64,000 bases of DNA. It comes from Eledone cirrhosa. Taxonomy: Eukaryota. The notes under the pieces were generated by a model. That model saw only the letters and a list, made by a program, of their open reading frames with translations. It searched no databases and was not told the DNA's origin. Position numbers and translations under genes: made by a program. Location of the stretch: NCBI GenBank assembly GCA_964016885.1, contig OZ024762.1:4898001-4962000 (forward strand), written 5' to 3'. This document shows positions 3,524 through 42,592 of this stretch, piece by piece (positions within the stretch are counted from its first letter, which is position 1; each line of letters begins with the position of its first letter).

Positions 3524-4034
3524 ATGGCTGAAAACGGAGATGTTAATTCAGATAATGATGCGGTTTATAAACGAGAAGACATATCAAGTGATAGATTACA
3601 AGAGAGACCCAGCGAGTCATCCAAAGGGGGAACGAAACTTGTCACTATAAAATCGGAAAATGAGATATTTACTGGCAAAGATGGATTATTGGAACTAAAT
3701 ATAAACCACTCGTGCAAAGTCTACATTCTTGTGGCCCTAGCTCAATGTTCGGTATTGTCATTGGGCTATGATTTGGGTGTGTCTTCAGGCGCTTTACTTG
3801 TACTTAAAGAAACCGTGCAGTTATCATCATTTTGGCAACAGTTAATAATTGCTGGACCCCTACCGTTGGCATTCATAGTTTCTTTCATTGCATCGAAAAT
3901 TTGCGATTCATTTGGCCGTAAAAAAACTATCATGGCCAGTAGTGTCTCATATTTCGTTGGATCTATCATTTCTGGAAATGCAGTGGATGAATATATGCTT
4001 TTATTCGGAAGATGTTTGGTGGGCTGTGGATTCG
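3524..4034 (+). CDS. SLC2A13: First coding exon A of an SLC2A13/HMIT-like MFS sugar porter (N-tail + TM1-TM4; 170 codons + 1 nt, phase-1 donor)
   Basis: ATG at 3524. Translation has GYDLGVSSGALL (TM1), WQQLII (TM2), DSFGRK (sugar-porter loop motif) and GRCLVGCGFG (TM4), matching HMIT GYDTGVVSGAMLL/WQELLV/FGRR/GRLVVGLGIG as I recall it. Donor G|GTAAGC follows 4034; the ORF beyond is low-complexity intron. The symbol means family-level similarity only. Confidence 0.88.
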
Positions 4035-5374
4035 GTAAGCGACCAAAGAGTTTTTTTGTTATTCTTCTTTACAGTTTTTCAACTGGTCCTCATTTTAAAT
4101 CACCATCCTTAGTCATGTATATGTGTGTAAATGTGCATCTGTGTGTGTGTGGCTATATGTATTTGAGTGTTTGTGTGTATGTCGTTATGCGTGTTTGAGT
4201 GTGTGTGGTTATGTGTGCATGTATGTGGTTATGTATGTTTGTTTGTATGTGTGTGTATGTGTGTACGTGGTTATGTGTGTTTCAGTCTGTGTGTGTGTGT
4301 GTGGTTATGTGTGTTTCTTTTTGTCTAATTATGTGAATTTTGCTGGTTAAAGAAAGAACTGGTCTTTAACAGAGAACCAAAGTTCTATCATTAGAATTTA
4401 GAGAACAAAAACAGTGAGCATCACAGGTTAAACTTTTAGAAACGTCTTGCATGTTTTTACTGTTCCACTTACAGGTTGTATGAATTAATAATCTGAATAT
4501 GGTTTGGTAGTGACCCGTACCTCCCGTGAGGGTCGTAAGGGTGCTATAATCATATACGGCTTTACTATGGCACAATACATCCCCTCTCCAGGTCTGAACA
4601 CAGCCGGTTTCTACCAGAGAAGGAGGGAGAGTTAGTTTGAGGAAGTGAGAAAGAGCAAGAATCGACCACAGTACTAAACTGGTACTTCTTTTTATCGCCC
4701 TCGAATTAATGAAAGCAAAGTTGACCTCGGCAGGATTTGAACTCAGAGAGTGCCGAAACGAATACCGCAAATCATTCTATCCGACGTTCTAACGACTCTC
4801 CCTATAGACGTATATGAGTATAGAAGCGGGAAATGTCAATGCAATGGTCCTTAATTTGCTCATTTTGGAAAAGAAAAACTTTCATTTGGAGAAACAGGTG
4901 ACCTATATGGCTGTATATACGTACCAATGCCAAACCTGACCGTTAAAACGAAAGTCCCGACTGCAGTTTCACCGAATCCGTTTGCAACAATATGCACTTT
5001 AGAAGTGCATCATCACTGTGAGGTTGATAAAGCTTATCAAAAGACCCCTCAAAAAGGATTGTTTCTTGACACGTTCGTAGCAAGGGAGAAATTCTCGAGA
5101 GGTGGTGGGAGAAATCATCGAGCAAAACGTGTTAAGGCGGACATACACATATGAATATGTGTGTGTATATCATTATATATATATATATATATATATATAT
5201 ATATATACATATCAGGATGGGGCGGTAAAAACCAGTTAGACCATTACTCACCAGAGTACTCGATACTTGGGGTAGTAAAGTGGGTAATATGAAAAATTCA
5301 GGACTCCGAGTTAGGATCTAGTTGTTGAAACGGCCAGAGCTCAGCCGTGATAGACTCAATATATATATATATAT

Positions 5375-5592
5375 CTAAGGCGGGTAAAATTCCCGAGATC
5401 CATGGACGAGTTCTCTCCAGCGGTCTCTGTCCCTCATTATCGCTGCCATATCCTGCATCTCCAACAGACCAGTGTCTGTCCTTAGGGCATCAACATATGT
5501 TAACCTTGGTCTTCCTCTTCTAGTGTGTCCATGTAGGGGCTCCCAAAGGAGCACTGAGTGCAATGTCAACTCTGGATGTCGGTGAGCATGTC
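5375..5592 (-). mobile_element. RTE-type LINE 3' end with (TA)n tail; near-identical copy at 23927-24082 (-), fragment at 34668-34798 (+)
   Basis: AGHAHRHPE..LLWEPLHG..RGRPRLTYVD..MRDRDRWR, stop, then (TA)n. Confidence 0.8.
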
Positions 5593-6550
5593 CAGCCAAC
5601 CTCAGTCTCCTCTGTATAAAGTAAAAAACAAAAATACAAAAACAATAACGAAGAGTGCAGTACGAACACTGGAAAATGATATCTGTAGTAGTAAAGCACT
5701 AAGTCCAAGCCATACACAAGGGGTATTCCGTCTTGTGGATTGTGCATTGAAGAAAGGACCAATATCCTGGGAAGATTACGCAATAACGATTGCCTAAATT
5801 CAGGGAATGAGCTTTTTTCACGTTTTCCACACGTCTGGAAACACCTCTTGCATAATTACAAAGCTCCAGATTGAATAACATCACCATTCTAACGTTTATT
5901 TGTGAGTGCCCGTTAAAAACTCACGAAAATATACCGACAGGAAACTTGTTTTATTTGGAGAAAATTAAGAAGTACAGTTTAGCTGTCTACGTGCATTGTT
6001 CATAGAAATATTGTTGAGCCCCTTCTTTTCACACTCCTCTGTTTTGGCCTTTTGGAATAAATGTGAAAGAGAAAGTCACAGGTTAAGTTGGCAGAAGGTT
6101 CCAGTGTCATAGCAGTAAGGCGTAGGTTACTTACCTCAAAAGTTCATTCGCACTCTTTCCACTAAGTTACTCTTTCCCTCTATCCCTTTCGGAGCAGTCC
6201 CTTGTAAATTTTTTGCATAGGCCTGGTGTAGATTTGTATCCGATCCATCTGCCCGATGCACATGTCCGCTTTGTACGGATTTTGGAGGAAGGAGTGACCA
6301 GCAGTACGTTGTTCGGTATTATTACGAAAAGGTGTAGCAGAGAATCCCGCGTGAACTAACAGCTCGGGAGGAAACTGCTTTATTCGCTATCGTTCTTGTC
6401 AACGTTCCGTTTACTTGGTATTTGTTGGTCTACATCTACAGTTAGATGAGTGGCGCACAAAGAGTTAATGTTTATTGGCGAGAAGTTTTTTGAATAATAA
6501 AAGACGGGTTCAAGCGACCTATATATATATAGTATTAAGGATACTATTTA

Positions 6551-7060
6551 TGGTTATGTATGTAATAAAACCTTTTATGGTAATATATTTTTTATACAAA
6601 CCCTAAATAGTGAAAGATAGTCATTAATTACTATCTTATTACCAGTAAGAGAAATAGCTCAATGTAATAACATCGGTTGTTTTACAGAGCAGTTATATAG
6701 AGATTACAATAATCAAAGTTCCTTCTTGGTTTAACTTTGATTATTGTAATCTATATATATATATATATATATATATATATATATATATATATATATATAT
6801 ATATAGAGAGAGAGAGAGAGAGAGAGAGAGAGAGAGAGAGAGAGAGAGAGAGAGAGAGAGATTACAATAATCAAAGTTAAACCAAGAATGAACTTTGATT
6901 ATTGTAATCTCTATATAACTGCTCTGTAAAACAACCGATGTTATTACATTGAGCTATTTCTCTTACTGGTAATAAGATAGTAATTAATGACTATCTTTCA
7001 CTATTTAGGGTTTGTATAAAAAATATATTACCATAAAAGGTTTTATTACATACATAACCA
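6551..7060. repeat. ~200-bp inverted repeat arms around a (TA)n(GA)n spacer; each arm ends in an internal hairpin
   Basis: 6551-6751 is the reverse complement of ~6860-7060, apparently differing at one site. Confidence 0.9.
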
Positions 7061-40777: not shown

Positions 40778-40840
40778 TTATTCTGATGAATGAAGACAGA
40801 CATAAGTGTCAAACTCTTCAAGAAACCATTGGTAAATGAA
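40778..40840 (+). ncRNA. Possible degenerate minimal hammerhead ribozyme
   Basis: TTATT-CTGATGA-A-TGAAGA..TCTTCA-A-GAAA-CCATTG-GTA-AATGA. Core present, but first stem II pair is A/A and stem I is short. Confidence 0.45.
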
Positions 40841-41189
40841 TTAATTATCTTATGTTGTTTATTACATAACTATAATACCAATATGCACACTACATATGCT
40901 AGCAGAAAACCGCGCGAATGGCGGTTTTTCTGTTAGTAATAATTGTTTTTACGTTAGGCACAAGGACAGCAATTACCCAGTTCATTACTGGTACTACATT
41001 TTATCGACCCCGTAAGGATGAAAGGCAAAGTTAACCTCGGCAGGATTTGAACTCAGATCGTAAAGGGACGTAATTCTATGCTGCAAAACATGGCGTCCGA
41101 CCCTCTACCGATACTGCCAATCCACCGCCCTGTCAGTAATAATAATAATACAGGTTAAATTCCGTTATAACGAATACCATTATAACGAA

Positions 41190-41812
41190 TTTGGTGGTGG
41201 TGGTGGTAAATGTGGTGACAGTGGTGGTGTTGGTAATAGCGTTGTTGTTGGGGTGGTGATGGTTGTGAAGGTGATGACAGTGGTGGTGTTGGTTGTGAAG
41301 GTGGTGGTAGTAGGGGTGTGGGGTGATGGTGGTGGTGATGGTCGTGTGGGGGGGTTGTAGTGGGAGTTGGGGGTGACGGTGGTGGTGTTGGTTGTGAAGG
41401 TGGTGGTAGTAGGAGTGTGGGGTGATGATGGTGGTGATGGTCGTGTGTGTGTGTGGGGGGGGGGGTGATGGTTGTAGTGGGAGTTGGGGGGGTGAAGGTG
41501 GTGGTAGTCGGGGGTGGTGGTTGTGGTGGTGAAGGTGATGACAGTGGAGGTGTTGGTTGTAAAGGTGGTGGTAGTAGGAGTGGGGGGGGGGGTGATGGTT
41601 GTGAATGTGGTTGTAGTGGGAGTGGGGGGTGACGGTGGTGGTGTTGGTAATAGCGTTGTTGTTGGAGTTGGTGGTGGTAGTGGCGGCTGTGTTAGTGGTC
41701 GTGGTGGAGGTGGCGGCGGCTGTGCTCGTGGTTGTGGTGGAGGTGGCGGCGGCTGTGCTCGTGGTCGTGGTGGAGGTGGCGGCGGCTGTGCTCGTGGTTG
41801 TGGTCGTGGCGG
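41190..41812. repeat. GGT/GGC-rich low-complexity tract upstream of exon C
   Basis: Direct reading; source of the Pro/Thr and Gly-rich ORFs. Confidence 0.85.
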
Positions 41813-42147
41813 CAAAATGTATACTGTGTTACCTGCGTGTTTTTCTGGTGGGCGGTCTAGACGGAGGAAGTTGGTGGTTGAGAGAGTAGTTAGAGAACGA
41901 GGAAGAGAGACACAGACACAGATGGAGAGGGTGATTGCATCATAAACGGAGTTACTTCCCTTGCAGCGAGGTTTAGTTATTAATTCTATCGTTTTCTCAG
42001 CACAGCGTGTTGTGGTGCGTAACAAGCGTGCGGAGAAAAAATAGAAACCGAAGCTAGCTCGTTGATTATTTAATTAGAGAGAGACTAAATAATCACTTAA
42101 CCAAAAACCAGAAAAAAACATCATTTTCAATACACACAGTAAAGAAA

Positions 42148-42592
42148 ATGGTGTTTCGTAAAGAATTTGATAACGATATTGATAACAAAGAATATTTCGA
42201 TGCGTTGAAAAAAGATAATAGCAATGAAGAAGAAGAAGAAGAAGAAATTGAAGGAAAACTTGATTATACACTTTTGGTTATAACATTACTGGCTCAACTT
42301 GGTGTAATGTCTATCGGATATGATTTAGGTATAAATTCTGGAGCTGTGCTTTTGGTGATGAAATCGGATTATATGACTTTAAGTTCACTTTGGCAACAAT
42401 TGATTATCGCTGGTGCTTTGCCTTCGGCCATCGTTATTTCACTGTTTGCATCGCAACTGAGTGATATTATAGGACGAAAACGAACTGTGATGACGGCCTC
42501 TGTCAGTTATTTATTAGGGGCAATTATTTCTGCATCGTCTGTGAATCGAACCATGCTTTTAGTCGGTCGACTTCTCATCGGATGTGGACACG
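42148..42592 (+). CDS. SLC2A13: First coding exon C of an SLC2A13/HMIT-like transporter (148 codons + 1 nt, phase-1 donor)
   Basis: ATG at 42148, short acidic N-tail (EEEEEEEIE), motifs GYDLGINSGAVLL, WQQLIIAG, DIIGRKR, GRLLIGCGHG. Donor G|GTGAGA follows 42592. More diverged than A versus B. Confidence 0.88.

Follow-up and report, generated by a model that had tools for sequence, protein, structure and literature searches.

How does one sugar transporter gene come to have several beginnings and a single body, and are the beginnings alternatives to one another? The question is raised by a 64,000-nucleotide stretch of the genome of the octopod Eledone cirrhosa (assembly GCA_964016885.1, contig OZ024762.1; G000:C23:4898001-4962000 in our numbering), hereafter the window, in which a first-pass annotation had proposed three alternative first exons of an SLC2A13/HMIT-like transporter, all joined to one common set of later exons encoding transmembrane helices (TM) 5-12. 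To the window, taken from a genome of 3.0 Gb, we added flanks of 80 kb upstream and 120 kb downstream, and the resulting 264 kb contain no N. The proposal gains support from the discovery of the shared exon set, of a further first exon, Z, and of orthologous gene models in Octopus. Very probably, the locus is one octopod gene for an HMIT-like sugar porter, with four tandem first exons that are used alternatively and one shared set of eight exons.

Four first exons and one shared exon set

The three first exons described initially, A (3524..4034), B (21114..21702) and C (42148..42592), lie on the plus strand where they had been placed, and each is open from its ATG to its donor over a length of 3n+1 (511, 589 and 445 nt, that is 170, 196 and 148 codons plus 1 nt). 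They end at the same codon in a homologous phase-1 donor, GTAAG, GTAAG and GTGAG, and all three match the Pfam family Sugar_tr above its curated cut-off, with profile positions reaching up to 115 of 452. That more variable exons might lie upstream had been anticipated, and exon Z is found 5 kb before the window (G000:C23:4892642-4893071, +), with an ATG, an N-tail of its own, TM1-3 and half of TM4, and a phase-1 GT donor. Four paralogous first coding exons, Z, A, B and C, are therefore arranged in tandem on one strand. We call Z, A and B, together with the Octopus X1/X3 type, the far exons, and C, which is closest to the shared exons, the near exon. The best named relatives of the encoded proteins are from Octopus and Argonauta (63-73% identity), and exon C is the orthologue of the MVFRK-type exon of these two genera. 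Used as a DNA query of the genome, exon A retrieves only Z, A and B (3/3 candidates); exon C yields 7 matches among 10 candidates, four on this contig and three on others.

The far exons resemble each other closely. Z and A share 94% DNA identity over 358 nt and 95% over 1.1 kb of the intron. Exon A is a mosaic, its 5' end being B-like and its TM part and following intron Z-like, and this suggests unequal crossing-over as a likely origin. Directly ahead of exon A is a block (3379..3523, +) that is a candidate promoter or 5' untranslated region, and a homologous block precedes exon B (20984..21113, +); the two differ at 10 of 130 aligned bases, and the other flank at 10 of 66. Both blocks carry a CACGTG box, at -120 relative to the ATG in A (3404-3409) and at -105 in B (21009-21014), in a context that we presume to resemble the CLEAR (coordinated lysosomal expression and regulation)/E-box element of lysosomal genes.

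The shared exons begin 3 kb past the end of the window (G000:C23:4964945-4980779, +). There are eight of them, measuring 160, 212, 112, 164, 112, 245, 153 and 167 nt, all flanked by AG and GT, and they encode 441 aa, comprising the second half of TM4 and all that follows up to the stop. The junction consequently splits TM4, so that of the four helices first ascribed to each variable exon TM1-3 hold and only the first half of TM4 does. The absence of TM5-12 exons from the window, noted in the beginning, is borne out by tblastn with five full or partial homologues and by blastn and tblastn with the locus's own downstream exons, all of which place these exons only downstream of the window; one faint tblastn hit inside it, at position 36882, has an E value of 0.93 and contains a stop, and was treated as chance. 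Searches of the 264 kb with the shared exons (blastn, tblastn) reveal no second copy of any of the eight, the extra matches being only partial or of low complexity, and no separate TM5-12 set lies between the first-exon copies, so that four first exons stand against one constant set. The intron that precedes shared exon 5 contains two partial copies of the beginning of that exon, each 32-34 nt long (L009:2544-2956, G000:C23:4974544-4974956). The genome-wide copy search covered two of the eight shared exons, 3 and 8, and each is present in one copy at 100% (among 3 matches from 17 candidates and 4 matches from 9 candidates, respectively). The remaining matches (41-67%) fall on contigs C1, C14 and C4, which together with C1189 carry three other genes of the family. 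Counts were not taken from a Pfam family search of the genome, in which only 9 of 145 candidates were scored and the shared exons went undetected. Elsewhere in the genome there is also an intronless, nearly full-length sugar-porter frame (G000:C2:409723547-409724833, -).

When Z, A, B and C are joined in frame to the shared exons, all four joins are open and run to the same stop, giving proteins of 584, 611, 637 and 589 aa, across introns of about 72, 63, 45 and 24 kb. The features of the sugar porter family (PF00083) are present, namely the Sugar_tr domain, the loop 2-3 motif DxxGR[RK] and PETKG, and the predicted fold of the O. sinensis far-exon isoform X1 (predicted local distance difference test 82.5, predicted template modelling score 0.83) is a 12-helix major facilitator superfamily (MFS) fold whose best Foldseek matches are STP6, GLUT3, STP10 and XylE. 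In this model the junction residue, Gly144, sits inside the helix 129-157, which assigns TM1-3 and half of TM4 to the variable exon. A helix count by hydropathy was discarded, as it gave 7-8 segments for every isoform and merged neighbouring helices.

According to a review of sugar porters, an acid in TM1 and an Arg in TM4 form a proton latch, TM1 also touches TM7b, the outer gate, and it is chiefly the C-terminal bundle that binds the sugar (PMC8154325). The TM1 Asp of the present proteins aligns with GlcP Asp22, and the TM4 Arg is kept in all four exons; in exon B and in the cuttlefish-type protein P0141 the TM1 Asp is replaced by Glu. The proteins thus share the Pfam Sugar_tr domain, the MFS fold, the Cys-rich loop, the TM1 acid and the TM4 Arg with HMIT/GLUT13/SLC2A13, GlcP, XylE and STP10. 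Unlike these common features, identity to canonical octopus HMIT is only about 43% in the shared part. Moreover, the TM7 QQ of canonical HMIT is changed to SQ/AQ and the TM1 Phe to Leu/Ile/Val, and because of these changes myo-inositol is not assured as the substrate.

Relatives, age and selection

RefSeq lists five Octopus sinensis isoforms of a 'proton myo-inositol cotransporter', X1-X5 (XP_029650495.2, XP_029650494.1, XP_036368583.1, XP_036368584.1 and XP_029650496.1). Among X1, X2 and X3, identity is 44-61% in the exon-1 part and 100% in the shared part of 441 residues. X4, which begins at an internal Met, adds a fourth start in shortened form, and X5 is a shortened X1, making four N-termini in total. 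Likewise, O. bimaculoides X1 and X2 (XP_052832263.1 and XP_052832264.1) differ in exon 1 and are identical in the 143-aa remainder. The comparison of related species that the first-pass annotation had called for accordingly finds two Octopus species in which orthologous RefSeq models combine differing first exons with one and the same remainder. As in E. cirrhosa, the Octopus isoforms have homologous, varied N-termini and a junction at the same Gly; they differ in that no one-to-one orthology links their far exons to Z, A and B, and in that the shared part is 75% identical.

For comparisons before and after the junction, 47 of 62 family proteins could be split at it. Among the Logan proteins, which carry no species, P0008 and P0141, on transcript-like contigs of at most 2.3-2.4 kb, have 94.5% identity in the part behind the junction but only 48% in the part ahead of it, and P0141 clusters with a cuttlefish gene model. 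Exons of the P0008 and P0141 types also occur as read-through products that end just past the junction Gly, in several slightly different versions. This pattern is compatible with a two-exon layout in cuttlefish. The pairs P0150/P0026 and P0150/P0152, which likewise have a common C-part and different N-parts, were set aside, the start of P0150 being a repeat-filled gene model. Cuttlefish also has whole-gene tandem paralogues of the family, with six gene models on one 1.45-Mb contig; P0030, P0031, P0033, P0150, P0158 and P0168 belong to this whole-gene HMIT-like cluster, and many divergent paralogues of the same type are found in Logan. In cuttlefish the family seems to have grown by the addition of whole genes, in octopods by that of first exons.

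What, then, is the gene? The label SLC2A13/HMIT-like given to it at first stands in the sense of an SLC2A13-like paralogue and fails in the sense of an SLC2A13 orthologue. A 23-row tree of the shared part sets a coleoid clade, to which the gene belongs, apart from canonical HMIT with support of 100/100, and P0008 with P0141 is sister to the octopod gene (93/88). The true HMIT orthologue lies elsewhere in the genome, its exon 1 being 100% identical to that of O. vulgaris HMIT over 155 aa. The gene of the window is, judged by these placements, a fast-evolving coleoid paralogue and not the SLC2A13 orthologue. Its identity to the Octopus orthologue is only 75-85%, versus 100% for canonical HMIT exon 1. 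The canonical gene itself seems to be split in the assembly, with exon 1 on C1189 (L005:1351-1815) and a later exon on C1 (L029, near 236.47 Mb).

The first exons have a history of their own. A 40-row tree of exon 1, built after exclusion of X4 and X5 as shortened and of one row that could not be split, unites C with Octopus X2 and Argonauta (97/94) and places Z, A and B with Octopus X1 and X3 (88/90). Approximately unbiased (AU) tests, for which the clades were named after the first tree had been seen, reject the four E. cirrhosa exons as one clade (p-AU 0.0002) and weakly reject all octopod exons as one clade (p 0.04); they neither support nor reject a grouping of the far exons with P0141 (p-AU 0.39) or of P0008 with P0141 (0.42). 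Since the trees and the AU test separate C from Z, A and B, the split between near and far exons appears to be older than the split between E. cirrhosa and Octopus, and it is perhaps older than the octopods.

Selection on the exons was estimated over 105-107 membrane codons. The far exons compared with C give a ratio of nonsynonymous to synonymous substitution rates (dN/dS, omega) of 0.35-0.42 at a dS of about 1.2, indicating purifying selection. Z and A, at a dS of 0.09, have a dN/dS of 0.56 that is indistinguishable from neutral (p = 0.27). Exon B departs from both, with dN/dS values of 2.9 against Z and 2.5 against A (Fisher p 0.003 and 0.02), and a three-sequence codon model assigns its branch an omega of 5.1-5.2 (likelihood-ratio test versus 1, p = 3.4-3.6e-4 under two frequency models), a signal that survives threefold correction. 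Polarised by the two Octopus X1 proteins, 38 sites at which Z = A differ from B comprise 19 that are B-derived, 4 that are Z/A-derived and 15 that are unclear. The divergence of the A/B flanks given above is in line with a dS of about 0.1. Exon B is likely to be adaptive, having evolved under positive selection, and because codon selection with an omega well above 1 is not expected otherwise, it is presumably translated into a working protein. Taken together, the old near/far split, the young Z, A and B and the positive selection on B portray an array that evidently evolves by birth and death.

How the first exons may be used

If the four exons are alternatives, transcription would start ahead of one of them, by choice of promoter, and its donor would be joined to the one acceptor that shared exon 2 provides, skipping the other first exons. 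All products would be full MFS carriers of 12 helices that have the sugar-binding C-terminal bundle in common and are distinguished by the cytosolic N-tail, TM1-3 and the first half of TM4. The swapped part would carry the proton latch of TM1 Asp and TM4 Arg as well as the TM1 face of the outer gate, and the most likely differences between the isoforms would lie in proton coupling, kinetics, fine selectivity, sorting (the N-tails are unrelated) and tissue of expression.

Several observations weigh against this account. Acceptor-like sites exist upstream of Z and C, and the promoters are candidates. The Octopus isoforms are predicted models from automated annotation, models of a kind that usually rest on transcript alignments. 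In a smaller tree of 21 rows the support for the far exons falls from 88/90 to 69/73, and the C group is unresolved there. One of the young copies, Z or A, could be idle. The test on exon B was post hoc, its branch having been chosen after the pairwise values, and it involves 107 codons and three sequences without a DNA outgroup. Finally, the three sequencing runs listed represent one sample, none is recorded as RNA, and their contigs extend into introns; no junction read or transcript of the species is among them.

A broader extension of the same account is one that we put forward tentatively, doubting it more than we believe it. The system may be coleoid-wide and very old, the module for proton coupling and the outer gate being a swappable cassette on a shared substrate-binding body in octopods and cuttlefish, with single cassettes re-tuned by positive selection so as to differ in coupling or substrate by tissue or compartment. 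It would take the Glu at the proton site in exon B and in the cuttlefish-type exon as independent changes.

The same four proteins might also be made through another switch, by mutually exclusive internal cassettes that follow a shared non-coding leader, as in Dscam, or by a small untranslated exon belonging to each. We consider this improbable. Acceptor-like sites, with at least 10 pyrimidines in 12, do occur within 250 nt upstream of the ATG of Z and C; they precede only two of the four exons, however, and such a site is present in 16.7% of 2000 random windows of 250 nt. Variable 5' ends are suggested by O. sinensis X1, for which two accessions give one protein and of which X5 is a 5'-shortened version. 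Yet A and B share their conserved upstream block with its E-box, the phosphodiesterase gene that ends about 7 kb before Z leaves little room for a leader, and homologous N-terminal swaps are attributed to alternative promoters in PMC8373072.

Slightly less probable still is that only exon C is used and that Z, A and B are leftovers of partial duplications, stranded and not yet decayed. The youth of the three copies (dS about 0.1), the compatibility of Z/A with neutrality and the internal Met at which O. sinensis X4 begins, as a decaying copy might, would all agree with such a history. Leftovers, however, would hardly persist as far-type exons annotated as joined in two Octopus species, and the rejection of the four E. 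cirrhosa exons as one clade also speaks against it. So do the purifying selection between far exons and C, the omega of B, which drift does not give, and the fact that Z, A and B all (3/3) keep their ATG, frame and donor. That these are tandem genes of the usual sort, their later exons having been overlooked or else collapsed in the assembly, is most unlikely in spite of the whole-gene paralogues of cuttlefish, given 264 kb without N and without a second copy of any of the eight shared exons, the same layout in two other assemblies (O. sinensis and O. bimaculoides), and short-read contigs that carry Z, A and B as separate sequences, which possibly come from the assembly's own source sample and so are not independent.

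Alternative use of four first exons is hence the reading that we retain, for an array whose surroundings are repeat-rich. Its spacers had been described as almost entirely repeats, which is too strong: about 70-73% is repetitive by Tandem Repeats Finder together with local self-matches (a lower bound), and 26-39% by Tandem Repeats Finder alone. The window opens with the end of the spacer after exon Z (1..3378, +), Z itself lying outside it, and closes with most of the 24.4-kb intron between exon C and the shared exons (42593..64000, +). Between A and B there are a 37-bp minisatellite of 125 copies with 97% match (8995-13619) and a 74-bp one of about 21 copies with 99% match (13785-15309). Open frames in the spacers (7840-8460, +; 15597-16184, -; 31391-32152, -) read, we assume, like pieces of retroelements of the LINE (long interspersed nuclear element) type, and another in an intron of the shared region (G000:C23:4970108-4970884, +) is presumably a mariner/Tc1-like transposase. 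Upstream the array is bounded by six intronless phosphodiesterase-like open reading frames of 813-1142 aa, in tandem on the plus strand and with phosphodiesterase catalytic motifs (G000:C23:4822565-4885471, L021-L027). One of the six was scanned against Pfam and contains GAF (PF01590) and PDEase_I (PF00233); the six would appear to be a tandem expansion of intronless GAF-phosphodiesterase genes.

Comparison with known variable-exon loci

This is by all indications a real variable-first-exon transporter locus, conserved among octopods. Its layout is of a known kind, that of UGT1A and Gr39a, and not a new principle, and the orthologous isoforms have been in RefSeq already, unremarked. In the literature that we could cover, which leaves out most subscription journals, neither this locus nor a comparable array in any sugar porter (SLC2) was found to be described. 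If the exons are used as we propose, the core of an MFS sugar porter would here be varied by the route to protein variety that UGT1A and Gr39a take. With one body shared by four natural chimeras, one of them apparently under strong positive selection, the locus would offer a direct test of the extent to which coupling and gating are separable from the substrate site; were the cassettes coleoid-wide, they would form a natural chimera set with which to probe modular energy coupling in sugar porters. For annotation, such loci should be treated as one gene and not as several fragments.

The architecture had been likened to that of the protocadherins and UGT1. With respect to layout the likeness holds; beyond layout the resemblance to protocadherins does not, and UGT1A and Drosophila Gr39a are the closer precedents. 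To our knowledge, the protocadherins of cephalopods (coleoids) themselves lack the layout of variable first exons and constant exons. In vertebrate UGT1A, GCNT2, UGT2A and the clustered protocadherins the variable exon encodes a soluble or extracellular domain. These vertebrate loci join tandem variable first exons to common constant exons and show birth and death and positive selection in the variable exons (PMC1885805). There, a promoter for each exon and a CTCF-driven choice are established, whereas a promoter per exon is a proposal for the E. cirrhosa array; the two are without homology and of independent origin. Nothing at the E. cirrhosa locus, for which no analysis of motifs or chromatin was made, points to the CTCF/cohesin-dependent stochastic choice of promoter in each cell that marks clustered protocadherins. 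Among human transporters, SLC41A3, SLC44A2 and SLC25A24 undergo N-terminal tandem-exon substitutions with homologous alternative first exons (PMC8373072, supplementary table); they have two variants each, of 42-91 aa in the four sequences shown, and no SLC2 gene is among the matches listed (5-34 of 58).

Among invertebrate genes for multi-pass membrane proteins, the nearest precedent is Drosophila Gr39a, in which four large tandem exons are each spliced to shared small exons; exons have been gained and lost there, gene conversion has taken place, and one exon has come under positive selection (PMC2204066). Like the E. cirrhosa locus, it has four tandem exons and shared exons. It differs in that its product is a chemoreceptor whose variable exon supplies six of seven helices, whereas the E. 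cirrhosa product is a carrier that takes about 3.5 of its 12 helices from the variable exon and has its main substrate site in the shared part.

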